Shown here: positions 2,104-47,990 of the stretch, one piece after another
Layout of the letters: the number at the start of each line of letters is the position of its first letter
Numbering within the stretch: the first letter of the stretch is position 1
NCBI GenBank assembly: GCA_030390025.1
Contig: CM059432.1
Coordinates: 46,068,001 to 46,132,000, forward strand
Length of the DNA stretch: 64,000 nt
DNA from: Squalus acanthias
Lineage: Eukaryota
Reading direction: 5' to 3'
The notes under the pieces: generated by a model
The model's database searches: none
What the model was told of the DNA's origin: nothing
The model's input: only the letters and a program-made list of their open reading frames with translations
Made by a program: the position numbers and the translations under genes

Positions 2104-4458
2104 TCACAGAGAAATAAGAATCAAGCGGTCTGCAAGCCCAGTGGGACAGAAACACTTTGCATAGCAACAAGCATCACTGATAGCATTTGTATTAAGTACC
2201 AGGACAGATACACACAGACAGACAAGAGAGGCACAGAGGGAGGCTGTAGGCCTATCTAAGAGGGAGTCAAACCTGGGACAGTGGCAGGAGAATAGAAACG
2301 TCGAGGAGTGCTGAAGAGTTGGGGTAGGGATTTGGGAGGGCAGAGTATCTGAGAGGGAAGGAATGAAAGGAGGCATGATGACAGGAGAGAGACGCCAGGA
2401 AGAGATAAAGAGAAAAAAGAAAAAAAGGGGGAGAAAAAAAGGGGAAATGGAAGTGATGGGTTTAATTAATGTTGTAGCTTCTACAGCTTTTTGTGGCAGC
2501 ATATTCCATGGACCTACCACCCTCTGAGTGAAGTAGTTCCTCCTCATCTCAGTTTTGAAAGAGCAGCCCCTTATTCTAAGACTATGTCCCCTAGTTCTCG
2601 TCTCACCCGTCATCGGGAACATCCTCCCCGCATCCACCCGATCCAACCCCTTCACAATCTTATATGTTTCAATAAGATCGCCTCTCATTCTTCTGAACTC
2701 CAATGAGTAGAGTCCCAATCTACCCAACCTCTCCTCATATGACCACCCCCTCATCCCCGGGATTAACCGAGTGAACCTTTTTTGCACTGCCTCGAGAGCA
2801 AGGATGTCTTTCCTTAAGTAAGGACACCAAAACTGTATGCAGTATTCCAGGTGCGGTCTCACCAATACCTTGTACAACTGAAGCAATACCTCCCTATTTT
2901 TATATTCTATCCCCCTAGCAATGAAAGCCAACATTCCATTTGCCTTCTTAATCACTTGCTGCACCTGCATACTAACCTTTTGAGTTTCGTGCACCAGGAC
3001 CCCCAGATCCCTTTGCACTTCAGTACTCTCCAGTTTCTTGCCATTAAGATAATAAATTGCTCTTGGATTTTTCCTGCCAAAGTGCATCACCTCACACTTT
3101 CCAGTGTTGTATTCCATCTGCCAAATCTCTGCCCACTTACTTAGCCTGTCTATGTCCCCTTGCAGGTTTTTTATGTCCTCCTCACTCACTACTTTCCCTC
3201 CCATCTTTGTATCATCTGCAAATTTTGATATGTTACACTTGGTCCCTTCCTCCAAATCGTTAATATAGATTGTGAAGAGTTGGGGACCCAGCACTGACCC
3301 CTGTGGAACACCACTAGTTACTGATTGCCAGTCTGAGAATGAACCATTTATCCCAACTCTTTGCTTTCTGTTAGATAGCCAATCCTCTATCCATGCCAGA
3401 ATATTACCCCCAATCCCGTGATTTTTTACCTTAAGCAATAATCTTTTGTGTGGCACCTTGTCAAATGCCTTTTGGAAGTCTAAATACACTACGTCCACTG
3501 GTTCCCCTTTATCCACTCTATATGTTACTTCCTCAAAGAACTCCAGCAAATTTGTCAAACATGACTTCCCCTTCGTAAAACCATGCTGACTTTGTCCTAT
3601 TAAATTATGATTATCCAAATGTCCTGTTACTGTTTCCTTAATAATGGACTCCAAAATTTTACCTACCACAGATGTTAGGCTAACCGGTCTATAGTTACCA
3701 GCCTTCTGTCTACTGCCCTTTTTAAATAAGGGTGTTACATTAGCAGTTTTCCAGTCTGCCGGGACCTTAGCGGAATCCAGGGAGTTTTGAAAAATTATTA
3801 CCAATGCATCTACAATCCCTACCGCCACTTCCTTCAAGACTCTAGGATGTAAGCCATCTGGTCCAGGTGATTTATCCGCCTTGAGTCCCATTATTTTACC
3901 GAGTACCACTTCCTTAGTGATTTTGATCGTGTTTAGCTCCTCTCCCCCTATAGCCCCCTGTTTGTCCAGTGTTGGGATATTCTTAGTGTCCTCTACTGTA
4001 AAGACTGATACAAAATATTCATTCAGTGTTTTTGCCATCTCCATATTTCCCACCATTAATTTCCCGGTCTCATCCTCTAAGGGACCAACATTTACTTTCG
4101 CCACCCTTTTTCTTTTTATATAACTATAAAAACTCTTACTATCTGTTTTTATATTTTTTGCTAATTTACTTTCATAATCTATCTTCCCTTTCTTAATCAA
4201 TCTTTTTGTTATTTTTTGCTGCCTTTTAAAGTTTTCCCAATCCTCTGTCCTCCCACTAGATTTCGCTACCTTATATGCCCTTGTTTTTAGTCGAATACTA
4301 TCCTTAATTTCTTTACTTAGCCACGGATGACTGTCCTTTCTTTTACACCCTTTTCTTTTCAGTGGAATATATTTTTTTTGGAAGTTGTAAAATAACTCCT
4401 TGAATGTACACCACTGATCATGTGTCGTCTTACCCTTTAATCTATTTTCCCAATCCAC
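2104..4458 (-). CDS. 784-codon ORF: intact CR1 reverse transcriptase domain read through into about 118 codons of flanking DNA
   Basis: ORF track 2104..4458 has no stops or frameshifts across the RT domain and no endonuclease domain. Expression is unknown. Confidence 0.5.
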   Translation of the reverse strand: MDWENRLKGKTTHDQWCTFKELFYNFQKKYIPLKRKGCKRKDSHPWLSKEIKDSIRLKTRAYKVAKSSGRTEDWENFKRQQKITKRLIKKGKIDYESKLAKNIKTDSKSFYSYIKRKRVAKVNVGPLEDETGKLMVGNMEMAKTLNEYFVSVFTVEDTKNIPTLDKQGAIGGEELNTIKITKEVVLGKIMGLKADKSPGPDGLHPRVLKEVAVGIVDALVIIFQNSLDSAKVPADWKTANVTPLFKKGSRQKAGNYRPVSLTSVVGKILESIIKETVTGHLDNHNLIGQSQHGFTKGKSCLTNLLEFFEEVTYRVDKGEPVDVVYLDFQKAFDKVPHKRLLLKVKNHGIGGNILAWIEDWLSNRKQRVGINGSFSDWQSVTSGVPQGSVLGPQLFTIYINDLEEGTKCNISKFADDTKMGGKVVSEEDIKNLQGDIDRLSKWAEIWQMEYNTGKCEVMHFGRKNPRAIYYLNGKKLESTEVQRDLGVLVHETQKVSMQVQQVIKKANGMLAFIARGIEYKNREVLLQLYKVLVRPHLEYCIQFWCPYLRKDILALEAVQKRFTRLIPGMRGWSYEERLGRLGLYSLEFRRMRGDLIETYKIVKGLDRVDAGRMFPMTGETRTRGHSLRIRGCSFKTEMRRNYFTQRVVGPWNMLPQKAVEATTLIKPITSISPFFLPLFFFFLFISSWRLSPVIMPPFIPSLSDTLPSQIPTPTLQHSSTFLFSCHCPRFDSLLDRPTASLCASLVCLCVSVLVLNTNAISDACCYAKCFCPTGLADRLILISL

Positions 4459-4460
4459 TC
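2461..4460 (-). mobile_element. CR1 LINE ORF2 fragment, truncated at both the 5' and 3' ends
   Basis: CR1 ORF2 motifs [43 protein letters not shown] and LVRPHLEYC. The CR1 3' UTR and tail are absent. Confidence 0.95.
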
Positions 4461-4589
4461 GTGTTCGGAGCAGCAGCCAAAACGTGCATGCAACTGGACA
4501 CAGGGAAACTCAAGTTACATAGGCCTAGTTACATTTAAAGAATATAGGATTCATATGTTCTAGTAATAAAGGGGAATAGAGAGAACATC

Positions 4590-11836: not shown

Positions 11837-12646
11837 GGGCAAGAAATTGGGCTTGATAGCATCCGTTTTCTGGGTGCTATGAGTGCCGTTAGGGATCCAA
11901 AATGGTGTCCGCGGTGCGTGCACACACTTCTGACATGAAGCGTGCCGGATGTCATTTTAGAAAAGGGGTTAGCGTGCGCTAACTGAATGTACGCCGAAAG
12001 TATGCAGAGCAGGCAGATCATGACGCTCCATGCTCCAAGTGTGTTAATCTGAATTAAAAGCATAAAAAAATACTTAGCAGATCAGGTAGCATCTCGACCT
12101 GAGACGTTAACTCTGTTTCTCTCTCCACCGATGCTGCCTGACCAGCTGAGTATTTCCAGCATTTTCTGTCTTCTCAGAGGCCTTCCTTTACCAGCCAAAG
12201 CCTTGCAAGTGTCCAGCAGCACTCCCTGCAGCCCTGCACACTTTAAAAACTTTTAAAATCTATTGCACCAAGCCATTACTTCAATAAAATATTTTAAAAA
12301 TCCAAAAGCTGAAATCCAAACCTACCTGAAAGATGTGTGTGTCCCTTTAAGAAGCGCTGACAGCATCTCTGCAGGGCTGCTTCACGCATGCTTTTCTGTG
12401 CGCATTCAAGACACAGTGTAATGGAGAGCGAGAACATCCAAATTAGCAGTTGTGGCGTCAAATCAGGTGTTGCACGCCGATTGACGTCACAATCTGCTTA
12501 TTTTAATTTGAGAGACCAACGCTGTCAACAGCAGCGCTGTGGCCCTTACCAAAATGGCAGCCACTGTGTGCAGAAGTGAGGTGGCTGCCATTGTTTCTAC
12601 AAAACCGGCCTTAACAGCCGGCATTAAAGCATTGAATTTCTAGGCC
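11837..12646. mobile_element. Composite non-autonomous Harbinger derivative with an internal Penelope-like fragment
   Basis: Ends gggcaagaaatt / aatttctaggcc. The left about 200 bp resembles 57803-58000, and the right part aligns with 44730-45386. Confidence 0.7.
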
Positions 12647-14470
12647 ATAGAGATTAAAATGAGATAGAAGAAAGAGGCTTATGACAAATGTAAGGGTGAT
12701 AATATAGTAGAGAACAAAGCTGAATATAGAAAGTACAGAGGAGATCTAAAAAGGGGAATTAAAGGGGCAAAGAGAGTATGAGATTAAATTAGCAGCTAAC
12801 ATAAAAGCAAACCCAGAAGTATTTTATAAACATATAAACAGTAAAAGGGTAGTCAAAGGAAGGGTGGGGCTGATTAGGTACCAAAAAGGAGATCTTCTTG
12901 TGGAGGCAGAGGGCATGGTAGAGGTACTGAATGAATACTTTGTATCTGTGTTCACTAGAGGAGAAGATGCTGCCAATGTAGCAGTAAAGGAGGAGGTAGT
13001 AGCAATATTGGACAGGATAAAAATAGATAAAAACGGAGTACTTTAAAGGTTGGTAGTCCTCAAAGTAGAAAAGCCACCCTGTCCAGATGGGATGTATCCT
13101 AGGATAGTAAGGGAAGTGGAAATTGCTGAGGTTCTGGCCACAATCTTCCCATCCTCCTTAGATATGGGGGTGGTGCCAAAGGACTGGAGAATTGCAAATG
13201 TTACGCCTCTGTACAAAAAAGGGAAGGGTGATAAACCCACCAAATACAGGCCATAATTAAAACAGAAAATGCTGGAAATACTCAGCAGGTCACGTAGCAT
13301 CTGTGGAGAGAGAAACAGAGTTAATGTTTCCAGTCAATAACCTTTCGTCAGAACAGGTCAGTCAGCCTAACATCGGTGGTGGGGAAACTTTCAGAGACAA
13401 TAATCTGGGACAAAATTAATCGGCATTTGGAAAAGTATGGGCTAATAAATGAAAGTCAGTATGGATTTATTAAAAGAAAATCGTGTTTGACTAACTTGAT
13501 TGAGTTCTTTCATGAAGTAATGGACAAGGTTGGTGAGGGTAGTGCAGTTGGTGTTGTGTATATGGACTTTCAAAAGGCGCTTGACAAAGTGCCACGTAAT
13601 AGACTTGTTCGCAAAGTTAAAGCCCATGGGATTGAATGGACAGTGGCAGCATTGACACAAAATTGGCTAAGGGCAGAAAACAGAGAGTAGTGGTGAATGG
13701 TTGTTTATCAGACTGGAGGGAGGTATACAGTGGTGTTCCCCAGGAGTCGGCATTAGGACCACTGCTCTTTCTGATATATATTAATGACCTGGACTTGGGT
13801 ATACAGGACATCATTTCAAAGTTTGCATATGATACAAAACTTGGAAATGTAGTAAAAAATGAGAAGGATAGTAACAGACTTCAGGGGGACATAGACAGAC
13901 TGGTGAAATGGGCAGACACATGGCAGGTGAAATTTAATGCAGAGAAGTGTGAAGTGATGCATTTTGATAGGAAGAAACTAAGTGGTACAATTTTAAAGGA
14001 GCTGCAGGAAAGGAGAGACCTGACGTATATGTATGCAAATCTTTAAGGGTGGCAGGAAAGTTAAGAAGCTGTTAAAAAAGCATATGGGACCCTTGGCTTT
14101 ATTAATAAAAGCATAGAGTATAAATTCAAGGAAGTTACGCTAAATCTTTACTATTGGTGAATAGGCCTCAGCTGGAGTATTGTGTTCAATTCTGGGCACC
14201 ACACTTTCGGAAGGATGTCAAGGCCTTAGAGGGTGCAGAAGAGATTTACTAGAATGGTGCCAGGGATGAAGGACTTCAGTTATGTGGAGAAGCTGGAGTT
14301 GTTCTCCTTAGAGCAGAGAAGGTTAAGAGGAGATTTGATAGAGGTGTTTAAAATCATGAAGGGTTTTGATAGAGTAAATAAGGAGAAACTGTTTCCACTG
14401 GTAACCAGAGGACACAGATTTAAGGTGATTGACAAAAGAAGCAGAGGTTACATTAGAAAATATTTTTTAA
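12647..14470 (+). mobile_element. CR1 LINE (3' end displaced to 20041-20195)
   Basis: Broken RT ORFs across 12864-14460. Confidence 0.92.
13254..13352 (-). mobile_element. Penelope-like terminal fragment (family P1) with a degenerate hammerhead motif
   Basis: Same sequence as 23737-23833. Minus strand reads gttCTGACGAaaggttattgactgGAAAcattaac. TSD acagg(c/t)ca. Confidence 0.75.
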
Positions 14471-15019
14471 CAGTGCCCAGAATTTTCTGGGGGTCATGTT
14501 GGTGCGATCGGGTGGGAAATTTGAAATATGTTGGTGTGGGTCGGGAACTCACCGTCATCCCGCCCCCACGCGCCTTTCCCTTGGGCGCGTTTACCAGCAA
14601 GGCAGCGACCCTGAACGGCAGAGGCGGGCGATCTAATTTAAATCATTAACAGATACTCGTCAGACACTTACACTTAAGCGCCTTTTTAAACCTACCTTTC
14701 AAATTTCCCTGGATGACCACGGGAATCACGCAGCTCAGGAACCACATCTGTCTACCTGAGGCGGGAGTTGAGTAGCCATTGATCCAGCTGATTAGTTGAC
14801 AGCATGAAATGTACTATAAAAGATCCCACCTCACAGCTGATCACTCTCCCCAGGCAGAAGCTGTTGCTGACTGCATTCCCTGCACAGATTTTGCTTTATA
14901 GAGGCTTCAAGTGTTTCCAGCAAAGTCACCATCCAGTCTCACCTCATTAGTAGAACCTATCACACCACTGACAGACTGCTTCCGTCATCTCTACTTTACC
15001 TGCCATCTATTCCATCAGC

Positions 15020-16217
15020 ATGGGTGCTGCTTATACTGTCTCACCTTGGTCCTCAGAATCGGGCCAAGATGAGCCCCAACACCAGCAGCACCAGCCACAG
15101 CAGCAGCACCAACAACACCACCAACCTTCTCCTCAACCACCTGATGCTCCACAGTACAGAGGGCATCAGCGCAGGGCTGCACTGTGCCGGAGGCGATACC
15201 CCGAACATAGGGTATACAGGCAGAGGATGAGCTTCCTCAACATGATTGAGCAGCAGTGCCAAAGCAGGCTCAGGCTATCGCGCCAGGTCATCGCAGACAT
15301 TTGTAGCTTGCTGGTGCAAGACCTGCAGCCCAGAGGAGCAGGTGGACATGCCTTACCAGTGGCTGTCAAAGTCACCAATGCCCTCAAATTCTTTGCCTCA
15401 GGCTCCTTCCAGGGATCTGCAGCAGACATTTGCAGCATGTCCACAGATGCATCACATAGGTCACTGATGCCATGTTTCACAAGTCAGCCAATTATATCAA
15501 CTTTGTCACTGATGAAGCCAGTGTTACTGAGCGAATGTCCGGCTTTGCCACTCTGGCTGGCTTCCCACGGGTGCAGGGCATCATCGACTGCACACATGTA
15601 ACCATGAAGGCACCCTATCATCATCCAGGAGTGTTTGTGAACCGCGAAGGCTTCCACTCCCTCAATGTGCAGCTGGTCTGCAACCATACAAAGATCATCA
15701 TGCATGTGTGTGCCAAATTCCCTGGCAGCTGTCATGACTGTTTCGTCCTTCACCAGTCCACCCTCACTCAGCTCCTCCAAACAGATTTTCCGACTGGCTG
15801 CTTGGTGACAAGGGCTATCCACTGAAGACGTGACTCATGATACCCTTGAGGAGGTCAAGAACTGAGGCCGAGGAAGATATAATGAAAGCCACATTTCCAC
15901 CAGATGTGTCATAGAGCAGAGAATAGGCATGTTCAAAATGTGCTTCAGATGCCTTGACAGATCTGGGGAGCCCTTCAGTACGTACCAGCCGGGGTCTCCA
16001 GAATCATCATAGTCTCCTGCGCCCTGCACAACATAGCGCAGCAGCGAGGATTAGCGCTGCATGAGGAGCAAGGCACTGAGCGCACAGCCTCTTCAGAGGA
16101 GGAGGAGTAGAAGGAGGAGGAGCCTGAGGAATCGGTGGGCCAGATCCCAGCAGCACCCGAGCATATTGCTGCCCAGGAGGCCAGGGATGGGCACATCATG
16201 GCCAGATTTACTTAACT
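15020..16217 (+). pseudogene. Harbinger DDE nuclease (HARBI1-like transposase), frameshifted, with Q/H-rich N-terminus
   Basis: Motifs [50 protein letters not shown] and IEQ.IGM.KMCFRCL are spread over several frames. Confidence 0.93.
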
Positions 16218-16369
16218 TCATACAGTACACGCATATGGCTGCCACATGCTGTGCCAGGTTGGCCCTACCCCACAGCAACACCATAAAGCACCCCTACAAT
16301 GACCAAGCCATTCCTTTTACACTGACTACCATTGCTGGAGGTAACGTTATGTCTCACCATTCACTGCAA

Positions 16370-19300
16370 CTCACTAAGCCACTTCCAAAGGTGCACACAA
16401 ATTTGACTGTGCAGGGGCAGACTCGGCCATCGCTGTCCGAGGAGGCATCTGGGGCTCTGACTGAGGGGGTGGCATCGGGGGAGAAGTGTGAGCGCTTTGA
16501 GAGGAGCCCCCACTTCCATGTCCCCTTGCACCATCATCCCTCTCATGGGCCACCCGCACTTCCCTATTGCCAAGAGCTGGAGAGCACCTTGCTGCACATC
16601 ACTGATCAGTGGGGCCATGAGGACCCACGTCTATGCTGACATCCCTCCTACAGGTCTATGAGCGACTGCCATCTATTCTCCATAGGTACCATGTGCACCT
16701 GTGAGTGGTGCATTAGCTGCTCCATGCAGGTGGCTATCCTATCCATGGAAGAGCCTACAGTCGCCATTGCCTGCGACACAGTGGTGCTCATGTTGGAGAT
16801 GGATTCCTCCATTCTCTGCACATTTGCAGACATCGCGGTCACAAAACCTGTCAAAGCCTCCTGCAATTCTTGCTGCACCTCCAGGATCGCCCTCTTTCTG
16901 GATGGCCCCCGAGGCTCAGCATCTGCATGCAGCTGAGCAGAGCTGGGAGTGTCCTGGGCCCTCCAGCGAGGGGTCTCCACTGCTGTCCCTGTCTCCACCA
17001 TCTCCTCTTGCTCACTTTTGAGTTGTGAGACACCAGGGGCTCGATTTTAATTCCCGAGGCGGGTTGGAGTCGGGTTGCGTGGTGGGCGGGTTCGGGAGCC
17101 GCTTCCAGCGGGAACAGCTGCAGAGTTGCGATTTTTATTAAACTAGCTTGTTAAATTCATGGCGGCGCGCTGGCCGGTCCAATGAGTGGGATCGGGTCGG
17201 CTGGCTGCCTCTGATGACGTCATAATAGCTGCGGCTTTAAAAGCTGCCATCCAGCCTAAGCCTTTCTATTCTGGTTTCCTGGACTTGATTTAAATGCTAT
17301 AACTTCTTCCAGAGGCAAGGCAGCTCCTCGTTTTAATGATGAGTCCCTCCAAGTTCTTGTGGATGCTGTCAGAGGGCGCAGGGAAATTCTCTTCCCTCCT
17401 GATGGCCGGAGGAAGCCTCCTCAGCAGACCAAGGCAGCCTGGCTGCGCATTACTCAGAAGGTGAGCGCAAGGTCCATATATGCACGGTCATGGATCCAGT
17501 GCCGCAAAAGGTTTAATGATCTTGTGAGAACATCAAAAGTGAGTATCCCATCTCACTTGCCTTCACTCTGCTTCCCTTCTCTTCTCATCACCAGCACTCT
17601 GCGTTCTAAGCCTCCTCCATCACATTCCATCTTACTCTTACTTCCCTTGCACCCTTTCCTATCCATCTCTGTCTCTGCACTGAATCAGTTCAGCATCCTG
17701 CCTATGCACCCCTTATACTTGCTCTCACTGTCATGCAGTGACAACAACTAACAACGCACAGGGAGCTACCTTCCTCTTGGGACCTTACTCCATCTTCGTC
17801 TCACTCAAAGCTTCTATGGTAGGGATTAATCACACTCACTCCATCACTGTGGCTGAAACACCGCTTGTGTCCCTCCTTGCAAGAAAAGATAGCCCACAGT
17901 AAGAGGGAGAGTGCAATGACTGGAGAAGGAACACCTACCCTAGCAACATTGACCAGTGCTGAGGAGGCTGCTAACGAGATTGTTGGAGTTGGCGAGGACC
18001 TGGAAGTGGGCGATGGAGAGACGGGCACACTAGAGGAAGCTGGTGACATAATAGAGTTTCATCCCTCTCAGAAAGCAATGGAATATGATGTTCATAGAGA
18101 ATCGCTTTGTATCATCTGCTCAAAAGGATGTGTCTGCTACATCATTATCAGATGTCTAATTCAAGCCTTTACTCTCCCACAGGACCATCGAGCGCCCCCC
18201 TCCCCATGATCCAGGACAAAGACCCGGACATCTCCTCAGAGGAACCTGAAGCCTCTGAGGGAGCAGCGTCACCAGGACTCAGCGCAGCCAGCACCAGCGC
18301 AGCAACACACACCTCGTGGGGCCCTCGCGAGTTAGAGTAATGTTGCCACCTGGTCTATCACAGCTCACAAGTGAGCATCAGCAGATGGTGCAGACAGCGA
18401 CAGCAGTAGAGAGTCCTCTGCGGACGTCGCAGGACTCTCCTAGCTCTGCTGAGCTGCATGCAGATGCAGTGCCTTTGGGGCTACCCAAAAAAAGAGCGGT
18501 TCGTGAAATACAGGAACAAGTGCAGGTGTCTCTGGAAGGGTTTGCCTCCAGGGTTTGTGCGAGTATGGAGAGAATGAAGGAGTCCATCTCTAACATTAGC
18601 ACTGCCGTGGTGGAGGCAATGGCGCATGAAAGCACCACCATGGATAGGATGGCAACCTCTGTGGAAAGGATGGCTACGGCCATGGAGGAAATAAGTCGCC
18701 AGAGTCAGGAAAACATGGTGACTGTCAGAATAGAATTACACCTCTGGAGGAGCGATGGGCAGCTATTGAGCAGAGAGACCAGAGCTTCATGGATGTCCTT
18801 TTGATGAGGACTGCCAGTGCAGATACGGGTCCTCATCATCAGAAGCAGGAAAATGGGAAACCACTATGAAAATAGGATTAGCAAGGCAGTTAACAGGCCT
18901 TAACTACCTGTCCCACCGGTTGGAGATGGGTCAGTTTGGGAGTGCCTAAACAGACACTCACAAAAATCGGGTGGGGGCGGGGTGGAGGCGGGGTAGGTGT
19001 CTGAAGCCATTTTTCCCGATTTTCCCAACAGACCCGCCTCCAAACCCGCCTCCTCAGGGCTATTAAAATCGAGCCCCAGGTGACAACACTACTCTATCTC
19101 ACATGGCACCCATCGAGGTGTGTGTATCTGCACTGGTGCTGGGTGCGCTTATGTCTGGTGACGGTGCGTCCTCAGAGGCTGGAGGCTCCTCTGAGGAGTC
19201 CTCTTCCTCTTCCTCCTGGACAGTGGGGGCAGGGGCGGGGGGGTGCTCTTGATGGACCTGTGGGAGAGTAAAGAGCTGACTTAGATATGTCATATCAAGA

Positions 19301-20040
19301 ATAGGTACAGATACCATTATGCACATGATGACCATTCAGTGGCTGCTGACATCAGTCCTCATATGAGTGACTGCTGTATGTAATGCAGCTGTATGATATG
19401 TAATTCCGTCACCAGGTTGCTGAGATGTCCCCTCTCTCCGTCTCCCACCTCCAGCTGCTCAGCAACTCCAGATACTTCTAAGGCAGCCTACTCTGCTGTT
19501 GTAAGGTTTGCAAATGATGGAGGCCCACCTCCAATTCTCTCTCCCTCTCCCTCTCCCTCTTATTGTGGGCTCTCTTTTCTTGCAAGAAGGGAAAGAAGCG
19601 AAGGTTGAGTGAGAGTGATGGAGTGAGTGTAAGGAATGGATGGGTTAGATTTTTAGAGGGAAACTATGATGGAGTGGGGTGGCAATGCCAAGTGGCCTCC
19701 TTGTGTGTTGTTAGTTGGTATGATTGTTGGTATGGGTGGACGTGCAAGGTATGTTGGTGTAAGTAAGGATAGGCAGCAGCAGGGTTGGGAAGGCAGAGTG
19801 ATGGGGATGTGATGAGAGGCACAGCATGATGAAGTTGAGTGTGGCTTTGTACTCACCTTTCCTGATCTAATGAGAGCATTGAAACGTTTCCGGCGCTGCA
19901 CCCAGGTCCTCCTGATCATGTCCCTGCTGTTGACCTCCTCTGCAATTTGGAGCCAGGCTCTCTTTGTCTCCTGGGGAGGTCTCTTCTTCTCATTCGATGG
20001 GAAGAGGACCTCCCTGCGTGCTCTGACTCCCTCCACAAGC
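16370..20040 (-). pseudogene. Spliced Myb/SANT-like DNA-binding gene of Harbinger copy 1; exon 3 split by element 17037-19076
   Basis: LVEGVRARREVLFP...AWLQIAEEVNS...RTWVQRRKRFN with a gtgagt donor at 19856. Later exons match copy 2, including a coiled-coil-like C-terminus (ORF 16648-17001). Confidence 0.85.
17037..19076 (+). mobile_element. Nested Harbinger derivative encoding only the Myb/SANT gene
   Basis: Perfect 15-bp TIR gggctcgattttaat and TSD CAG; the empty site gacaccaggtgacaac is seen near 49052. Three Myb exons at about 17310-17538, 17883-18042 and 18183-18804. No nuclease. Confidence 0.93.
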
Positions 20041-20195
20041 AACTTTCAAAAGGGATTTGGATAAATACTTGAAGGGAAAAAATTACCGGGCTGTGGGAGT
20101 GGGACTAATTAGATAGCTCTATCAAAGAGCCAGCACAGGCACAATGGGCTGAATGGCCTCCTTCTGTGCCATATGATTCTATAACTCTATGATTC
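20041..20195 (+). mobile_element. CR1 3' end belonging to 12647-14470
   Basis: TFKRDLDKYLK, then gggctgaatggcctccttctgtg and a (ctatgatt)-like tail. Confidence 0.85.
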
Positions 20196-23351: not shown

Positions 23352-23732
23352 TAATCTTGTTTTCAAATCCCTTCATGTCCTCGCACCTCCCTATCTCTAT
23401 AGCTTCCTCCAGCCCTACAAACCTCCGATATCTCTGCACTCCTCCAATTCTGGCCTCTTGCGCATCTCCGATTTTCTTCGCTCCACCATTGACGACTGTG
23501 CCTTCAGCTGCCGAGGTCCTCAACTTTGGAATTCCCTCCCTAAACCTCTCCGCCTACATTGACATCTCTCTCCTCCTTTAAGACACTCCTTAAAACCTAC
23601 CTCTTTGACCCAGCTTTTGGTCAGCTGTCCTAATGTCTCTTTATGTGGCTCAGTGTCAAATTGTGTTTAATAATCACTCCTGTGAAGTGTCTTGGGAAGT
23701 TTTACTACGCTAAAGGCACTATAGAAAAGCAA
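23352..23732 (+). mobile_element. L2 LINE 3' end (tail continues at 24432-24448)
   Basis: LVFKSLH.LAPPYL...AFSC.GP.LWNSLP; the tail ...aaaggcactata...gttgttgttg is split by the Penelope-like insert. Confidence 0.85.
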
Positions 23733-23796
23733 AATAACAACAGAAAATGCTGGAAAAACTCAGCAGGCCAGGCAGCATCCGTGGAGAGAGAAACAG

Positions 23797-23833
23797 AGTT
23801 AACGTTTCAGGTCGAAGACCTTTCGTCAGAACT
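23797..23833 (-). ncRNA. Minimal type-I hammerhead ribozyme motif (left-arm copy)
   Basis: Exact reverse complement of 24281-24317. Confidence 0.75.
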
Positions 23834-24280
23834 GGAAAAAAGCAGGAAATGAAATTGATTTTAAAGCAAGTTTAGGGCTGGGAAAAGGGGGAGGGGATGA
23901 AAGAACAAAAGGGAAGGTCAGTGATAGGATAGAAAGCAGGAGAGATTAAGAGACATTGAGAGACATTAAGAGATATTCAAGGCAAGAGGAGGTGGAAATG
24001 GGACAGGTTGAGGAACAAAGGATGGCTCAGATGAAGTGTGAATTGCGCTGGCAGAATGAAAGACAGCACAATTCACACTTCATCTGAGCCATCCTTTGTT
24101 CCTCAACCTGTCCCATTTCCACCTCCTCTTGCCTTGAATATCTCTTAATGTCTCTCAATGTCTCTTAATCTCTCCTGCTTTCTATCCTATCACTGACCTT
24201 CCCTTTTGTTCTTTCATCCCCTCCCCCTTTTCCCAGCCCTAAACTTGCTTTAAAATCAATTTCATTTCCTGCTTTTTTCC

Positions 24281-24317
24281 AGTTCTGACGAAAGGTCTTC
24301 GACCTGAAACGTTAACT
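24281..24317 (+). ncRNA. Minimal type-I hammerhead ribozyme motif
   Basis: agtt CTGACGA a aggtc ttc gacct GAAA cg tt aact: stem I agtt/aact, stem II aggtc/gacct, palindromic stem III AACGTT, predicted GUU cleavage triplet. Confidence 0.78.
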
Positions 24318-24474
24318 CTGTTTCTCTCTCCACGGATGCTGCCTGGCCTGCTGAGTTTTTCCAGCGTTTTCTGTTGTTATTTCGGATTTCCAGCATCCGC
24401 AGTATTTTGCTATCGCACTATAGAAAAGCAAGTTGATGTTGTTGTTGTAACGCCTTTTAAGTGCGACACATTCA

Positions 24475-25240
24475 GGGTGAGATCTTTGAAAGGTGTGATG
24501 TGGCAGCTGCATTCTAAACATGTGCCAAGAATTTACGCTTTGGGTGCATTTGGCGAGCCGGGCACAAATTGCGCTCAAAATTGCGCTAGTTTTAAGAAAT
24601 TTTTGTTTTACTAAAGTTTACACTCAAGCTCATTTGTGTATCGACGAATGTAAAATCTGCCATGCACCAGAGCAATCAGTAAAAATTTGTATTAAAAAAT
24701 ATTCTATGATATATTTAAAAGTGGTAACCTGGTGCAGTTTTATTAATACAGCTGTAAATACGTTTATCACAAAAAAATAAGAATTTTTAATTGGAGTATC
24801 TAGTCCACCACCTGTGAGTTATCTGATTTTAAATAACTGAAAATTACTCTAAAAAAAACTATACAGAACCATTTACTGGTTACATTGGTGTACACTAGTC
24901 AGTTTCTTAGTAAATTAAAAAAATCTTTTAAAATGTGCCTATTAGTGTCCTTCTGCCTAAAAAAAGCTTAATTTTAAGAGCATCCTCGAAGGCCCAAAAA
25001 AGACGCAATTAACCCAAGCTCGCAATGGAGATTAATTCGATTTGGGGACGTGGCCCGTTTTGTGGGCGAGTCCGGCTTCCAACGCGATGTTTTTAAACTA
25101 TCGCAAAAGATCGCAGAAACTCGATTTGTGCTGGACGTAATTTGCATTTGAAATTCTTTGATTTTTTTTGTGCTGGTTTGGCTGATTTTGGGCCAATTGC
25201 ACTGAAACAAACCAGTGCAACCTAGCGGAAACTCCTGCCC
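24475..25240. mobile_element. Possible old non-autonomous DNA element
   Basis: CpG-rich ends around an AT-rich core. The right end ggaaactcctgccc resembles Harbinger TIRs, but the left TIR is unclear. Confidence 0.35.
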
Positions 25241-25967
25241 AAGGCCTTTAATTAGATGGACAAAAATATCTTGTGTAACAAGTTGTTTGTTCATGAAGAT
25301 AACTGTTAGTTGCTGCACTGACAATGTTCAATCTATTGAGGAATAAAATCACAAGCAGTGCCAGGCTTGAACAAGAATTGCGGATACTATGTTATGTTGG
25401 GATCAGAAACTCTATCAAACAGAAGGTAGAGTGCTCTTACAAACATACCACAAAGGATTGTAACTGGTCAGGGATGGTGTAAGGTTAGATGGGTATTAGC
25501 AATTTTGTTCCATTTACCATTGAGAGCAAGGGAAACCTTGTAAAACGGATTGTACAATCTCTGGAAGAAACACGTTTCATGGGCTGAGCAACCTTTGCTC
25601 ATTCATGTTTTCAATCTTAAATGGTTTGGTAGAGTTCTATTCTTGATCTCAATTTTGCTTTGTTTAGGTTTGCTTTAACCTAAAGATTCTAAAGATAATA
25701 GATCCATTTGCGTAGTACGGTTTCCATGGTGTTTTGAAAACCAGCTGCATCATTGGTTATTGTCAGTGCCCACCTTTAACCTATTGGCTTCACTGGATTT
25801 AACCAGATAATATTTGTTTGAAAAGAGAACTTTATTAATGTTGTTATGACATCATTGTTCCTTATTGAGTAATAGTTAAAAGCCATATGCAAAATTTTGG
25901 TTGGTCAGGTTAAATGATGGAAAAGTAAATGTTAAGAGGAATTGCTCTACCTAATTCTGAAGCTGTA

Positions 25968-26640
25968 AGAACATAGGAATTATGTTTCTTAGTGGGAACA
26001 TAAGGATATAGGTACAGGAGAAGGCCATTCAGCGCCTTGAGCTGGGTTTGCCATTCAATCAGATAATGGCTGATCTATATCTCAATTCAATTTACCCACC
26101 TTGGTTCTATATCCCTTAATATCCTTATCTCATAAAAATCTATCAATCTAAGTTTTGAAATTTTCAATTGACCTAGTCTTAACAACTTTTTGGGGGAGAG
26201 CGTTCCAGATTTCCACTACCCTGTGTGTGAAGAAGTGCTTCCTGACATCACCCATGAATGGCCTAGCTCTAATTTAAAGGTTATACCCCCTTGTTCTGGC
26301 CTACCCCACCGTGGAAATAGTTCTCTCTACCCCATCAAATCCTTTAATCATCATAAACACCTCAATTGGATGTTCTATACTCAAGGGAATACAAACATAG
26401 TCTATGCAAGCTGTCCTCATAATTTAGCTTTGTTATCATTCTGGTGAATCTGCAGAACACCGCCTCCAAGGCCAATATATCCTTCCTGAGCTGCGTGTCC
26501 AGAACTGAACCCAGTACTCCAGACATGGTCTAACCAGAGCTATATACAACTGTAGCATAACTTCCACCCCTTTCTATTCCAGCCTCCTTTGAGATAAAGG
26601 CTAACATTCCATTAACCCTTTCAATTATTTTTTGTCCACT
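25968..26640 (-). mobile_element. CR1 3' fragment, decayed
   Basis: CR1 tail and LVRPCLEYWVQFW-like sequence on the minus strand. Confidence 0.85.
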
Positions 26641-27202
26641 CATTTAATCTAAGGGAATTCAAAAGTCTTCTCTAGGCATCATCAGCAAAGTGATGGAAGG
26701 TGTCATCAACAGTGCTATCAAGCGGCACTTACTCACCAATAACCTGCTCACTGATGCCCAGTTTGGGTTCCGCCAAGACCACTCGGCTCCCGACCTCATT
26801 ACAGCCTTTGTACCAACAAGGACAAAGGAGCTGAATTCCAGAGGTGAGGTGAGAGTGACTGCCCTTGACATCAAGGCAACATTTGACCGAGTCTGGCATC
26901 ACGGAGCCCTAGTAAAACTGAAGTCAATGGGAATCAGGGGGAAAACGCTTCACTGGCTGGAGTCATACCTAGCACAAAGGAAGATGGTTGTGGTGGTTGA
27001 AGGTCAATCATCACAGCCCCAGGACATTGCTGCAGGAGTTCCTCAGGGCAGTGTCCTAGGCCCAACCATCTTCAGCTGCTTCAACAACGACCTTCCCTCT
27101 AACATAAGGTCAGAAATGGGGATGTTCGCTGATGACTGCACAGTGTTCAGCGCCATTTGCAACTCCACAAATAATGAAGCAGTCCATGCCCATAAGCAAC
27201 AA

Positions 27203-27422
27203 TGATGCGGATATGCCGGTGTAAAACTGGGGTGGACAAAAGTGAGAAGTCGCACAACACCAGGTTATAGTCCAACAGCTTTATTTGAAATCACAGGCTT
27301 TCGGAGCGGCTGCTCCTTTGTCAGGTGAAGTCCTTCACCTGACGAAGGAGCAGACGCTCCGAAAGCTTGTGATTTCAAATAAAGCTGTTGGACTATAACC
27401 TGGTGTTGTGCGACTTCTCACG
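27203..27422. mobile_element. Penelope-like terminal element (family P2) with fold-back structure
   Basis: Arms about 27242-27330 and 27333-27421 are reverse complements. TSD taagcaacaa. Homologous to 56709-56848. Confidence 0.85.
27335..27372 (+). ncRNA. Minimal type-I hammerhead ribozyme motif
   Basis: tcac CTGACGA a ggagc agac gctcc GAAA gc tt gtga, with palindromic stem III AAGCTT. The opposite-arm copy (27291-27328, minus) has a mutated core CTGACAA. Confidence 0.78.
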
Positions 27423-34221: not shown

Positions 34222-35860
34222 GGCCCAGAAATTAAAGACTGAGGGGTAAAAATTCACTTGGTTGCGCCACCCGTTAGCGCCTTAAGAGGGCACTAATGGG
34301 GCGCAAAGCCGCTAACGCCCGGGCGCAGCGATGTTTGCGCCGCTCGAGAACTTAACTTGAGATTGTGCGGCGGCGCTAAAACTTACCGCTGCGACCACCT
34401 GCGCACGCAGATTGTGACGTCATTCCATGGTGCAACGCCCTTGGGGCGCCCCGTAGCGGAAATTGAGTGGCGCCCCCTGCCTTACCGCCTGGCGCTTCCA
34501 ACGACCAGAAGACTGGAACGCTATCAATCGCTGTGGGGCTGGGGGGGGCGCTATTTAAAGGGGGCCTCTTCCTGTCTTTTATTGTTGGTGGCATTTTTGA
34601 ACTACGCATTCTGAGAGAGAGAGGGAGAGACTTCTGGAGAGATTCAACGTTGTGTGAAGGAGTTTTGGGTACTGAGCAGCACTTTGCAGGTTCATTTTGA
34701 TTTGCCATTTCTTGTATCGATTTAGCAGAGACCGTGGGAGCTGCACTCTGAGCTCTTTGCCTGGTGCTCTCCATTGTTCTTTCCAGCACATTTGATGTGC
34801 AAGTCTCTCCAGGCCGAGATTCAAGGCAGCAATGAACAGGATGTGGATGGAAAGCAAGATTAACCATCCCCTTTAAGAACTGGCCCGTGCCATTGTGTGT
34901 GTGTTCCATTGCTGACTGACATTACATGAGCTTCGCCAGCGCTCCGAGTTAGCGCCTCACTGCTCGGCCTTTGCGCCTTAAGAGAGGTGTGCAGCGCCTG
35001 CTTTAGCGCTCCACTCACCTCCCGGGGCGGTAAAAGTGAAGTTTCCCGTCAGTGCCGATAATTAGCGCCAGGCGCTAATATTTGCGTCCGGACGATATTT
35101 GCGCCCCAAATGGGGCGCGACCTAATTTCTACCCCTGAGTGTTGACGTGGGGGTAAGGCTTCCCCGCGATATCTCACTCCGCACCTTCCTTTTTCCTCCG
35201 GGCCCACACGAACTTTAGTTTCAAGGCTGCAGCTGTGCAGTGTGTGCGTGACCGAGAGACGCAGTTAGTTCGTGCGAGCTCTGGGATCACGTGATTCAGT
35301 TAGAGCCAATGGCAGCACACCATCTTTCATTCATAGTTTTGACAGGAAGACCTGTCAAAGCTATGAATAATATACCCCCCCAAAAGAACAGCTAAACCTC
35401 AATTAAATTTAAAAAAAGCCATCACATTAATAAAATAAGTATAGTTAAATAAATTAACCACTTTAAACAAAAAATTAAATTTTTGAAAAAATTTAAAATC
35501 TTTTTAAAAGTTATAAAAATAAACTTACCTTTCTTTAAAGTCTCTAAAAAAGATAAACCTGTTGAAAAAAATTTAAAATAATACTTAATTAACTACTTAC
35601 CTTGTTAAAAGAGGGTCTTACGCCTCCTTTCTTTATGTGTAAAATCTTCCATGCTTACCTGCGCGTTCAAAGCACTAAGTGCACTGCATGCGCGCAGCCT
35701 GTAGCGCACACGCGGTTCACCTAGGAACCGCCCCCTTTTGAATTCACGAAGTGCCGGTTTCCCGCACATGTGCAGTGCATGCTGGAAACTGGCAATTGGA
35801 GACCTAAAACGCGAGAGTACACAGTGCGTACTCTCGCATATTAGGTCTAATTTTCGGGCC
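34222..35860. mobile_element. Harbinger-type MITE (same family as 38277-39019) containing nested element 34243-35135
   Basis: Termini ggcccagaaatta / taattttcgggcc and TSD AAT. Confidence 0.9.
34243..35135. mobile_element. GCGC-rich Harbinger deletion derivative
   Basis: TIR ggggtaaaaatt / aatttctacccc and TSD TGA. Reverse homolog of 55532-56423. Confidence 0.9.
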
Positions 35861-37949: not shown

Positions 37950-39778
37950 GAGTTGACCAGTTTAAGCCGAGTTCTTACCTATCCATTCCACTCTTACCTA
38001 TCTAGTCATAGACAGAGAATATCCTGCACTGGCTTCTCTTCTTGCCTCCACCCAAGTACCTCTGGAGTCCTCCAAGGATCTATCCTTGGCCCCACCTATT
38101 TCTCACCTACAGCGGCAACATCACCCAAAGACATGATGTCAGACTCCACATTTACGCTCACTACCACCTCTCTCGACCCCTCCATTGCCTTTATGTTGTC
38201 AGATTGCTTGTCCAACATCCAGTCCGGGATAAGCTGCGATTTCCTCCACTTAAACACTGGGAAGACCAAAGCCATTGGCCCAAAAATTCGTGAGGGAGCC
38301 TTCGTGCGAGGGTAAGGCTTCCCCGCGATCTCTCACTGCGCGCTGGCTTTTTCAGTCCGAGCTCGCACGAACTTGATGTTCTGGACAGCAGCTGTGCAGG
38401 GCTTCCGTATCCCACAGGCGTAGTTAATTCGTGCGAGCTGTGGGATCACGTGACTCAGTTAGAGCCAATGGCAGCACACCATCTTTCATTCATAGCTTTC
38501 ACATAAGTGCTGTGAAAGCTATGAATCTATACCCCCCCAAAAGAACAGCTAAACCTCAATTAAATTTTTTTAAAAAACCATCACATTAATAAAATAAGTA
38601 TAGTTAAATAAATTAACCATTTTAAACAAAAAATTAAATTTTTGAAAATGTTTTAAATCTTTTAAAAAGTTATAAAAATAAACTTACCTGTCTTTAAAGT
38701 CTCTAAAAAAGATATACCTGTTAAAAAAAATTCAAAATAATACTTAATTAACTACTTACCTTGTTAAAAGAGGGTCTTACGCCTCCTTTCTTTATGTCTA
38801 AAAAGTTCCATGCTTACCTGCGCATTCAAAGCACTAAGTGCACTGCATGCGCGCAGCCTGTAGCGCGCACGCGGTTCACCTAGGAACCGCCCCCTTTTGA
38901 ATTCACCAAGTGCCGGTTTTCAGCGCATGCGCAGTGCATGCAGAAAACCGGCAATTGGAGACAGAATACGCGAGAGTACACAGTGCGTACTCTCGCGTAG
39001 CGGCACTAATTTTTGGGCCATTGTCTTTGGTCCCCACCACAAACTCAGTTCCCTCACCCTTGCTGGCAACGGTTCATATTCGCTGAACCAGACTTGTAAC
39101 CTTGGCACCCTATTTGATTTTGAGCTGAGCTTCCTTCACAAAGACCGCCTACTTCCACCTCCATAACACTGCTCATCTTCGCCCCTGCTTCAATGTATCT
39201 GCTGCTGAAACCCTCATCTATGCTTTTGTTATCTCCAGACTTGACTATTTCAATGCTCTCCTGGCCGGCCTCCCATCTTTCATCCACAATAAACTTGAGC
39301 TTATCCAAAACTCTGCTGCCCGTATTCTAACCTGCACCAAGTCCCGTTCATCCATCACCCCTCTGCTCGCCGACCTACATTGGCTCCCGGTGGCTCAATT
39401 TTTAAATTCTCATTCTCCTGTTCAAATCCCTCCATGGCCCTGCCCCACCCTATCTCTGTAACCTCTTCCAGTCCTACAACCCTCCAACTCTGACCTCTCG
39501 TGCATCTCCAACTTCCTTTAGCCCATCATTGGCAGCCGTACCTTTAGCCATCTAGGTCCTCAGCTCTGAAATTCCCTCCCTAAACCTCTACACCTCTCTC
39601 TCCTCCTTTAAGACCTTCCTTAAAACTTACCTCTTTGACCAAGCTTTTGGTCACCTGTCCTAATATCTCCTCATTTGGCTCAGTGTCCATTTCTGTCTGA
39701 TTACAGTCCTGTGCAGCGCCTTGGGATGTTTTCCTGTTAAAGGTGCTATATAAATGTAAGTTGTTGTTGCTGTTGTTC
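37950..39778 (+). mobile_element. L2 LINE 3' portion, split by MITE 38277-39019
   Basis: SGVLQGSILGP, LNTGKTKAI, SRLDYFNALLAG and LIQNSAARIL motifs, with a (ttg)n tail. Confidence 0.88.
38277..39019. mobile_element. Harbinger-type MITE
   Basis: TIR ggcccaaaaatt and TSD ATT. Colinear with 35136-35860. Confidence 0.92.
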
Positions 39779-43118: not shown

Positions 43119-45386
43119 GGCCTAGAAATTCGAGTAGGCCAGAAACCTGCCGGTGCCACCGCGGGCCGAAGTTAATGGCCAGCGCAGTGAGAGTGAAGAC
43201 AGCATGGGTATTTTGGTGCTGCCTGCTGATTTACATTAGCGCAGCGCAAAACCTACAGTGCAAGTCTGTGTTTCGAGCGGTAGTCTCAGCAGGAGGCCCA
43301 ATGTAGTGTGGCCATAGCGTCCCTGGAGGAAGGCAGTGTTCTCTTACAGTTAGCCTGTCATTTTAGAAAGCAGTGTCGAGCCCTGAAGACAAATATACAT
43401 TAAAAATAATTCCAAAATGGCAGTCTTCCGCATGTAAAAAAATGGTGAAAGTGCTTCAGCACTAAGACAAATGGCTCAACAAGCCAAGGAAGGGGCACCC
43501 AGGGTCTCGAACGCAGCACTCCAGCTTTGTGCAGGGAGTCAACACTGCAAGAGAGGTCCTCTACCCACAGGGGCCAAGTGGCCCTCCAGAAAGAAGGATG
43601 TGGGACCACATCACCGAGGCCGTCACTGCCGGCAGTGTTGCCCCCATGACCTGGCTCCAGTGCCCAAAGAAGCTTCATGACCTCAGACCAGTGGTCAGGT
43701 CAGTGAATGCATCTTCAAAAGCTGTCTCCTACCAACTGCATTATTAGCCTCACACACTGCTTATTGCAAGACCCCCGCCCCCGTCATCACTCACCTACCA
43801 ACAATCTGAACCAAACACAAGGCACACCTCACATTACTAGTTTCACCTCATCCCCTTGGAGGATACGGTGTTGGCCATTTTTGGCAGGGGCATGGCTGAA
43901 CCCTTGGCCAGTGGCGGAGCTTAAAGGATTCAAGATACTGGTATCCTCATATGTTATTGTCCCTCTCACATCCAACTTCCCCCTCATTCGACAGTTTCTT
44001 CTGATTTACAAGGCGTGCATGGTGTAAGAATGCTCTTGCTTTCCCATCCTCCCCTCACCCTACCCACAGCTCTACCCTTGTGCCTTCCTCATTTTACACA
44101 CCCAAGAAATCCAGCCTGCCCAGCCAGTGGTTGACCAAGAAGAGGGAGAGGAGAGAGAAGAAGAAGAAGAAGAAGAAGAAGAAGAAGAAGAAGAAGAAGA
44201 AGAAACAACACCGTCACTCGATTTCACACTCCCAGCCACCAGCTCCTCAAGGTTGTCTTGCAAGGCCATCTGCAGTGTCCCCCACTGAAAGTCAACAGCT
44301 TTCCACCAGCCATGCTGCAGCCACTGGGGTAACATCAGTAGGATAGGCAAGGGCACACACAAGGCAGTCACTAAGAGAATGCACAAGGGTGATGAGTTGA
44401 GTTGATTTCTTGATGTCATATTAGATGGATAGATATATAATATTGGATTGGAAAGTTTGCTTTGTGGTGGCTTTTATTTCAGCATTGTGGCCAAGAGGAC
44501 GATGTGATGGTCAGTAACAGAGGGAAGGGAAGGTGTGGGCCTAATGTTGAAAGGGAATTGTGGTTGTGGTCACTGGTACCGCAGGCGGAAGACTCGATCC
44601 CGGATATCCCGGCCAGAAAGGGGCTGTTTGGGTTGCATCCTTCCTTCCACTTCCTCCTCTTCTGCATCTTCCTCTTCTGCGTCCTCCTCTTCTGCTTCTT
44701 CCTCTTCCCTCTGTGAGTGGATGCTGGAAATCTGAAATAAAAACATAAAATGCTGGAAATACTCAGCAGGTCAGGCAATATCTTGACCTGAGATATTAAC
44801 TCTGTTTTTCTCTCCACTGATGCTGTCTGACCTGCTGAATATTTCCAGCATTTTCTGTCTTCTCAGAGGCCTTCCTTTACCATCTGAAGCCGTGGAAGCA
44901 TCCAGCAGCACTCCCTGCACACTTTAAAAACTTTTAATATCCGGCGCAGACATGATGGACCTCCTTCTGTACTGTAAATTTCTATGATTCTATTGCAGCA
45001 AGCCACTACTTCAATAAAATATTTTTTTTAATTCCAAAGGCTTAAATCCAAGCTTACCTGAAAGGTGTTTGTGTCCCTTTAAGAAGCGCTGACAGTGAAT
45101 CTGCAGGGCTGTTTCATGCACGATTTTCTGTGCATGCTTGGGACCCAGCATTAAAGAGAGCGAGAACGTCCAAGTTTGCAGTTGTGGCGTCGAGTCAGAT
45201 GTTGCATGCCGATTGACGTCAATTTGCATTTCAGAAATCTGCGTTGTCAATGGTAGCGCTATGGCCCTTACCAAAATGGTGGGCGCCGTGTCTCGCGCCG
45301 GAAACAGCTGGAAGCGAGGCAGCTTCCATTTTTATTTGAGAAAACCAGCTTTAAAGGCCGACGCAAAGATAAGCAATTTCTAGGCC
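43119..45386. mobile_element. Internally deleted Harbinger: Myb/SANT pseudogene (+), nuclease C-terminus only (-), embedded Penelope-like fragment
   Basis: TIR ggcctagaaatt at both ends. MAQQAKEGAPRVSNAAL / VNTAREVLYP...TWLQCPKKLHDL at 43471-43698. Acidic nuclease tail on the minus strand near 44575-44710. P1 fragment at about 44719-44860. Confidence 0.85.
44156..44203 (+). repeat. (GAA)n microsatellite, about 16 units
   Basis: Perfect GAA run inside the acidic exon of the Myb-like gene. Confidence 0.95.
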
Positions 45387-46787: not shown

Positions 46788-47990
46788 ATGGGTGTCCCTT
46801 ATACTGTCTCACCTTGGTCCTCAGAATCAGACCAAGATGAGCCCCACCACCAACAACACCAGCAGCAGCAGCAGCAGCATCCACAACACCAGCCTTTTCC
46901 TCAACAACCTGATGCTCCTCAAGAGAGAGGAGAGCACCACAGGGCTGCAGCAACACAGGGTATACAGGCAGAGGATGAGCTTCCTCAGCATGACTGAGCA
47001 GCAGTGCTAAAGGAGGCTCAGGCTATTGCGCCAGGTTGTCGCAGACATTTGTAGCTTGCTGGAACATGACCTGCTGCCCAGAGGTCCTGGTGGACATGCC
47101 TTACCAGTGGCTGTCAAAGTCACCAGCGCCCTCAACTAACTTTGTCTCAGGCTCCTTCCAGGGATCTGCAGCAGACATATGTGGGATCTTCCAGTCGGCC
47201 ACCCACAGATGCATCACACAGGTCACCGATGCCATGTTTCACAAGTCAGCCAATTATATCAACTATGCCACTGATGAAGCCAATGTTACTGAGTGAGCGC
47301 TCAGCTTTGCAGCTCTGGCTGACTGCCCACGGGTGCAGAGCGTCATCGACATGAAGGCACCCCATCATCACCCAGGAATGTTTGTGAACCGCAAAGGCTT
47401 CCACTCCCTCAATGTGCAGCTGGTCTGCAACCATACAAAGATCATCATGCATGTGTGCGCCAGATTCCCTGGCAGCTGTCATGACTCTTTCATGCTGCGC
47501 CAGTCCATCCTCCCTCAGCTCTTCACACCGCCAACAGACTTACCGGCTGGCTGCTTGGAGACAAGGGCTATCCACTGAAGACATGGCTCATGACACCCAT
47601 GAGGAGGCACAAGTACTGAGGCCGAGGAGCGTTATAATGAGAGCCACATGTCCACCAGATGTGTCATAGAGCAAGCAATAGGCATGCTGAAGATGCACTT
47701 CAGATGCTCTGACAGGTCTGGAGCATCCCTTCAATACGCACCAGCCAGGTCTCCAGAATCATCGTCGTCTGCTGCACCCTGCACAACATAGCGCAGCAGC
47801 GAGGATTGGAGCTGCAGGAGGAGCAAGACACACAGCACACAGCCTCTTCAGAGAAGGATGAGGATGAGTACAGGCAGGTGGAAGACTAGGAGCAGGAGGA
47901 GGGGGAAGCCGAGATGCAGATGCCACCAGCAGCGGCGCACATTGCTGCCCGGCAGACCTGGGATGGCCTCATCAAGGCCAGATTTACTTA
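46788..47990 (+). pseudogene. Harbinger DDE nuclease, disrupted
   Basis: [41 protein letters not shown] and [11 protein letters not shown], with stops and frameshifts. Confidence 0.93.

Follow-up and report, generated by a model that had tools for sequence, protein, structure and literature searches.

A Near-Perfect Palindrome with a Hammerhead Motif in Each Arm, Very Probably a Truncated Insertion of a Penelope-like Element

Introduction

The closest described counterparts of the locus reported here are insertions of EN+ Penelope-like elements (PLEs). The published signature of a PLE insertion is an inverted, tail-less copy together with a tailed copy, both lying inside a target-site duplication (TSD) (PMC3846280, PMC8557442). 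Pen2a_Av from A. vaga, for example, combines an inverted pLTR with a tail of 31 bp and a TSD of 9 bp (Arkhipova et al. 2013, PMC3846280). Palindromes at inverted PLE junctions have been ascribed in the same work to self-priming, with an antisense template being invoked whose nature is left unsettled there, and the formation of tandem and inverted PLE insertions is still called undefined in a later account (Craig et al. 2021, PMC8557442). In the anole, the PLE protein cuts and extends both target strands, and synthesis begins at two internal positions, one at each end of the tail; AT-rich DNA is preferred, and cleavage by the ribozyme is dispensable (Frangieh et al. 2024, PMC11167929). Moreover, opposite-strand hammerhead pairs 100–700 bp apart have been reported in Schistosoma, and cleavage by the minimal hammerheads (min-HHR) of PLEs is low even for dimers (Cervera & De la Pena 2014, PMC4209133). 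Animal non-LTR retrozymes have been described with a mean unit of 363 bp in one chondrichthyan (bioRxiv 10.64898/2026.07.22.740005), and siRNAs from inverted Penelope copies are known in Drosophila (PMC3681739).

Here we analyze a palindrome at 23716–24431 of a stretch of 64,000 nucleotides, hereafter the window, and propose that it is very probably a single young, dead-on-arrival, truncated insertion, in which the final ~350 nt of a highly abundant PLE are present as two head-to-head copies. The PLE insertion pattern and opposite-strand hammerhead pairs are both already in print; a search of the published literature, limited mainly to the main text of open-access papers, returned no description of this PLE family or of cDNA snap-back. 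The locus itself matters little, being one among very many truncated PLE ends.

Results and Discussion

Architecture of the Palindrome

Self-comparison of the sequence gave two arms (23732–24050 and 24064–24382) that are reverse complements of 319 bp each, with two mismatches (24046/24068 and 23748/24366) and a 13-nt loop between them (24051–24063), just as stated in a preliminary description of this DNA. A direct repeat of 17 bp, identical in both copies (23716–23732 and 24415–24431), encloses the palindrome, and an unpaired tail of 32 nt (24383–24414), present in the right copy only, separates the right arm from the right repeat. At 53333–53008, a copy of the host repeat runs uninterrupted and holds the duplicated stretch once; the left flank of the insertion corresponds to 53333–53024 of this copy, and the right flank to 53035–53008. 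As the two flanks match neighbouring stretches of the intact copy, the 17-bp repeat is a true target duplication, which upholds the TSD proposed earlier as an exact repeat in a host sequence continuous across the insertion. That the TSD sits in an L2 tail holds for its location near the tail of the host repeat; the name L2 is provisional, being taken from a C-terminal ORF2 peptide pattern upstream of other host copies and not from a library match. In addition, imperfect 10-bp tandem units common to both arms indicate that the arms share one template. The features are the following:

23356–23715, + strand: host repeat, presumably the 3′ end of an L2-type LINE, broken near its tail; 74–83% identity to three other window copies, continuous with 53333–53008
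23716–23732, + strand: TSD, left copy, 17 bp, whose last base also pairs with 24382; sequence repeat
23733–24050, − strand: left arm, very probably a tail-less and 5′-truncated PLE end with − as its sense strand; self-comparison
23797–23833, − strand: minimal type-I hammerhead motif with the predicted cleavage site after 23801; descriptor
23940–23977, no strand assigned: imperfect 10-bp tandem units, in both arms (mirror 24137–24174); repeat comparison
24047–24067, + strand: turn, a 4-bp inverted match of 24047–24050 with 24064–24067 that closes the 13-nt loop; contig ends, DNA fold of −3.0 kcal/mol
24064–24382, + strand: right arm, very probably a 5′-truncated PLE end with + as its sense strand; self-comparison
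24281–24317, + strand: minimal type-I hammerhead motif with the predicted cleavage site after 24313; descriptor, layout as in PMC4209133
24383–24414, + strand: probable PLE tail, 32 nt, right copy only; end points of family copies at 24382/24383 and 24415, with diverse AT-rich flanks in run X9
24415–24431, + strand: TSD, right copy, then the remaining host-repeat tail; alignment, with contig 17 of sequencing run X6 reaching exactly 24415

The window reads like a repeat-rich stretch of a vertebrate, by the look of its repeats a cartilaginous fish, and 33 of its frames resemble a CR1-type RT frame. Its longest open frame (801 codons, 2107–4509, − strand) carries RVT_1 and is of a CR1-type LINE. 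Harbinger-type remnants lie at 14972–19900 and 47297–49938, with DDE_Tnp_4 at 15460–15822 and 47297–47575, and Myb/SANT at 17260–17748, 19656–20045 and 49546–49938. Shorter imperfect hairpins were seen at 673–741, 35800–35848, 38488–38526 and 38903–38999, and those at 35800 and 38967 have a GC-rich core in common.

Hammerhead Motifs

The motif on the + strand consists of a 4-bp stem I (24281–24284/24314–24317), the core CUGACGA (24285–24291), an extra A (24292), a 5-bp stem II with a 3-nt loop (24293–24297/24301–24305), GAA, the palindrome ACGU (24309–24312) and U17, and its mirror occupies 23833–23797 on the − strand. The descriptor thus finds one motif per strand in minimal type-I layout, and a hammerhead motif in each arm, as noted beforehand, is confirmed. 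Core positions C3–A9, G12–A14, A15.1–U16.1 and H17 are all as expected, as are the extra nucleotide 9/10.1 and the palindromic 15.2–16.2, and the pair 10.1–11.1 is A-U instead of the typical, non-universal G-C (G-C or G-U in a second family). Across the 64-kb window the descriptor gave four matches, against none in 100 random 64-kb sequences of equal dinucleotide make-up; having been written after the motif was seen, it is independent only in its two matches (27339 and 56725) in the second family. There, stems I, II and III differ in their letters and the layout is the same, which makes these matches the better argument against chance. A scan with hammerhead models had also been proposed, and the Rfam models do not match the motif: no match in the whole window reached the gathering threshold, and up to E 10 there were 50 matches on the hairpin and two on the motif, with no hammerhead family among them. 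These sub-threshold matches are mostly to miRNA models and reflect the long hairpin, and the two on the motif are due to chance; a miRNA precursor was ruled out, as its Rfam scores lie below gathering and are structure-driven.

An ORF start at stem II was not evident in the three frames. In three copies of the two families (13255–13357, 27333 and 56719), the 5′ ends lie within ~3 nt of the 5′ edge of stem I and not at the cleavage site, which suggests that the RNA may start just upstream of the ribozyme and be copied uncut. An AT-rich, TATA-like stretch is found at ~24250–24256, 25–30 nt upstream of stem I.

Relationship to Penelope-like Elements

Five features of EN+ PLE insertions were examined, and to judge from the sequence the unit has them all: an inverted, 5′-truncated copy adjoining the 5′ end; a tail of 32 nt at one end (30–40 bp being typical), with two 3′ end points; an exact TSD, here of 17 bp; a minimal type-I hammerhead in the pLTR, as found by the descriptor; and membership in a dispersed repeat family. 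The defining feature, a link to an RT/GIY-YIG ORF, lies outside these five. A search for such ORFs had been proposed, and none of the first family, to which the palindrome belongs, was found in the window frames scanned or by protein search. Pfam returned no GIY-YIG domain in 142 of the 276 window frames of at least 70 aa (the 140 longest of 243 non-CR1-like frames and two RT controls, a set that short exons would escape), and detected RVT_1 in the two RT controls, DDE_Tnp_4 in two frames and Myb_DNA-bind_5 in three. A 57-residue frame over the hammerhead and tail, compared with longer proteins, gave 16 candidates, none at E 0.001. Pattern scans yielded no loci in metagenome contigs, viral contigs or prokaryote genomes, where a vertebrate repeat is not expected. 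A MITE-type DNA transposon was ruled out by the asymmetric tail, the 17-bp TSD and the palindrome taking up the whole length.

The first family has four further segments at three window loci, and is therefore a dispersed repeat. Its abundance was examined in four of 24 sequencing runs (two of organism A, one each of organisms B and D) aligned to 24016–27365, which takes in the loop, the right arm and the right flank, the left flank lying outside. What is said of loose ends (9,677 in all), joints (2,106) and pieces (501,415) draws on the 24, 15 and 32, respectively, that were listed. Summed contig depth, which is not copy number, was 5.8–6.6 million over the hammerhead bin (24240–24351) versus 7–23 in unique bins (25248–25919) in all four runs, and the repeat family is clearly very abundant in each of them. 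At the loose ends listed for run X9, the element is left by 490 contigs at 24382, by 473 at 24383 and by 449 at 24415, and the sequences that follow are AT-rich and agree poorly with one another (0.35–0.37); the count at 24415 is less telling, as the window leaves the element there anyway, and the low agreement is the informative part. Two family-wide 3′ ends, at 24382/24383 and 24415, bound the tail. Other copies (46 contigs in X1 and 97 in X6, at the loose ends listed) match the left arm, the loop and 24064–24067, and then continue into a shared, different sequence. Among the joints listed, inverted junctions at other loci connect 24059 to 24193, and 27265, 27278, 27293 and 27295 to 27333; two of them, 24059 to 24193 (depth 126–198) and 27293 to 27333 (depth 594–938), exceed the depth of a single copy by far and are amplified, both of them being confined to organism A. 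Since inverted junctions elsewhere sit at other positions, the mirror half appears to be built anew at each insertion.

Additional fold-backs are present in the window itself. The second family forms one 3 kb from the palindrome, inside an RT frame, with a 39-nt tail (27203–27241), 89-bp arms (27242–27330 and 27333–27421), a 2-nt loop and a 10-bp TSD (27193–27202/27423–27432); its tailed arm is without G8 and U16.1, and the motif of its tail-less arm is intact. Another copy, at 56697–56860 (element 56709–56848), has a 10-bp inverted stub (56709–56718) that mirrors 56800–56809 and begins at the tail boundary, a 39-nt tail and a 12-bp TSD. For the first family, 12057–12173 and 44719–44860 are offset inversions, two copies of one older junction, with 5′ ends offset by ~44 nt and ~480 bp of surroundings shared at 74% identity; this junction was carried as a passenger inside another repeat. 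Finally, 13255–13357 is a solo tail-less copy.

Age of the Insertion and Probable Empty Site

Both arm mismatches are CpG-type transitions (p ~0.001 if randomly placed, the site definition being partly circular). Of 12 CpG copies, 2 have decayed, the unpaired tail retains two CpGs, and the arms show no other difference, a pattern indicating arms that were identical at insertion and later decayed in methylated DNA. Contig 17 of run X6 (organism B), which has 312 nt and single-copy depth, aligns from 24591 to exactly 24415 and then continues with 135 letters unlike the element; it probably represents the empty site in organism B, whose flank is ~3% diverged. No contig of the organism-A runs X1 and X5, among the 32 of 501,415 pieces listed, covers the junction or 24455–24521, and these runs differ from the window at a few flank sites. 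Taken with the architecture, the hammerhead type, the tail boundaries and the run data, the decay of 2 of 12 CpG copies supports the earlier view of a young, protein-free, Penelope-derived unit.

Predicted RNA Consequences

The full hairpin is predicted at −634 kcal/mol on both strands and, whichever strand is transcribed, the antisense arm precedes the ribozyme. For a transcript that stops immediately short of the core, the prediction has 220 of 221 right-arm bases paired, and 253 of 254 once the motif is complete. A monomer fold with stems I and II comes out at +1.0 kcal/mol and, with the antisense arm removed, stem I has a pairing probability below 0.02 and stem II one of 0.85–0.89, all of these folds being equilibrium predictions and not kinetics. 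Dimeric hammerhead cleavage was reportedly dealt with by Lunse et al. in 2017; the present unit has no same-strand hammerhead partner for a dimer. With the ribozyme sequestered in the hairpin by an antisense arm made before it, there would be little room for cleavage to compete, and the hammerheads are predicted to be silent in read-through RNA. The hairpin in competition with self-cleavage put forward in the preliminary description finds no backing in these folds, nor in the missing dimer partner. If transcribed, the palindrome could possibly serve as a siRNA/ADAR substrate. Genomes of this kind hold many long near-perfect hairpins, which could feed dsRNA pathways if transcribed.

Alternative Explanations

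The possibility that the palindrome is an assembly artefact, a fold-back chimeric read, had been raised before, and the absence of a junction-spanning contig among those listed for organism A is what one would expect from it. However, the flanks differ between the two sides, and the exact TSD linking them makes the host repeat whole again; in addition, the tail is one-sided, the arm differences are CpG-type and a second family shows the same layout, making an artefact extremely improbable. It could also be argued that the insertion is older and that the arms were later homogenised by arm-to-arm gene conversion, as both depart together from the family majority at 3–5 of the 30 letters before 24029. 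Such shared departures are nevertheless explained by a common template; in addition, the unpaired tail keeps its two CpGs, the TSD is exact, and a relative ~3% apart in the flank has a probable empty site. We regard gene conversion as very improbable.

Two further readings would give the palindrome a life of its own, and we consider both highly unlikely. One holds that it is a functional hairpin-RNA locus, yielding either a 319-bp dsRNA for endo-siRNA/ADAR or, from outward pseudo-LTR promoters, short RNAs with hammerheads that pair in trans. The very stable hairpin on both strands and the two intact motifs would suit such a role, Drosophila Penelope inverted copies do give siRNAs mapping to their inverted parts (PMC3681739), and by prediction two molecules could fold together into one hammerhead (−11.6 kcal/mol). 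Yet stem I hardly forms even without the antisense arm (probability below 0.02), the minimal hammerheads of PLEs cleave poorly even as dimers (PMC4209133), and the neighbouring fold-back is without G8 and U16.1 in one arm. Moreover, no host gene domain was detected nearby among the frames scanned, which short exons would escape, and an insertion probably absent from a close relative offers no conservation. Incidental siRNA output, for its part, is compatible with a truncated PLE insertion as well. The other reading takes the whole palindrome for a non-autonomous family copied as a unit, retrozyme-like or a fold-back element. It can draw on some inverted junctions at other loci whose depth, among the joints listed, ranges from severalfold to some tens of times that of unique sequence and which are hence multi-copy, and on the old junction shared by 12057–12173 and 44719–44860. 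The latter two, however, travelled in another repeat (~480 bp of flank, 74% identity), junction positions vary between copies, contigs through the loop continue in native sequence and not in a mirror arm, and the direct tandem units that define non-LTR retrozymes (bioRxiv 10.64898/2026.07.22.740005) are absent. The term retrozyme-like, used in the preliminary description, does not fit a unit with no direct tandem whose junctions differ between copies.

Possible Insertion Mechanism

Taking the palindrome as a truncated PLE insertion, its formation can be pictured as follows. The RT/GIY-YIG protein of the element, supplied in trans, would nick the two strands of the target with a stagger of 17 nt. 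From the top-strand end, reverse transcription would be primed at the inner start site (the tail-less end), giving the left arm, and the bottom-strand end would prime at the outer start site and copy the tail. The left cDNA would extend 17 nt beyond the start of the present right copy, and its last 4 bases would fold back on a native inverted match and prime self-copying, giving the right arm, after which repair would join the ends. The hammerheads would be passengers of the pseudo-LTR.

Other copies read through the loop and 24064–24067 into shared sequence, and the loop and the 4 bases are therefore native to the tail-less copy. Within the reading as a PLE insertion, we somewhat favour such a cDNA snap-back. 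The turn hairpin counts against it, being weak (−3.0 kcal/mol in a DNA fold), and the stub and offset cases indicate that unequal two-copy joints do occur. A possible but less probable course is that two long cDNAs annealed through the same 4 bases, which yields an identical sequence. In general terms, we tentatively suggest, as something that may well be the case but is far from assured, that the two target ends are extended from different internal start sites, the inner giving the tail-less arm and the outer the tail, and that the antisense template of self-priming is nascent cDNA on a short native inverted match. If this were true in general, fold-back loops would nearly always be native to the tail-less arm, and turns would cluster at native micro-hairpins; the thousands of copies in such genomes could test this open step of PLE transposition. 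The locus would be a clean fossil of that step, its long native loop and 4-bp match showing which strand ran furthest.

Comparison with Known Systems

Non-LTR retrozymes (bioRxiv 10.64898/2026.07.22.740005) resemble the unit in a length of ~350 nt, the absence of protein, a type-I hammerhead and an origin from a PLE pLTR. They are, however, made of units in direct tandem, with two or more hammerheads on the same strand, whereas the pair here is inverted and comes with a TSD and a tail. Assignment to the non-LTR retrozymes was ruled out, as at least two consecutive direct tandem units with a complete hammerhead are required and here there is one per strand, inverted.

With the min-HHR (PMC4209133), the motifs have in common type I, a 4-bp stem I, the extra nucleotide 9/10.1 and a palindromic 15.1–16.1 without loop 3, and the spacing of the opposite-strand pair, ~460 bp, falls within the 100–700 bp of the Schistosoma pairs. 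They differ in A10.1-U11.1 instead of the conserved G-C and in a 5-bp stem II with a 3-nt loop, and are here predicted motifs.

Regarding Poseidon of Anolis carolinensis (PAc; PMC11167929), the likeness lies in AT-rich flanks, in copies with an uncut ribozyme being kept, and in two 3′ ends shared across the family, which lie past the hammerhead, here at 97 and 129 nt counted from where the core begins. Unlike in PAc, an ORF start at stem II is not evident.

The closest agreement is with EN+ PLE insertions (PMC3846280, PMC8557442), which show the head-to-head inverted copy, the one-ended tail, the TSD, the 5′ truncation and the junction palindrome found at this locus; the tail has 32 nt here and 31 bp in Pen2a_Av (PMC3846280). 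In contrast, the TSD is of 17 bp against the 8–10 bp quoted for A. vaga (PMC3846280), the palindrome is without an ORF, and the two copies are of near equal length, the whole insert being one hairpin. Finally, where PMC3846280 invoked an antisense template, the loop at this locus points to cDNA as the strand that folds back.
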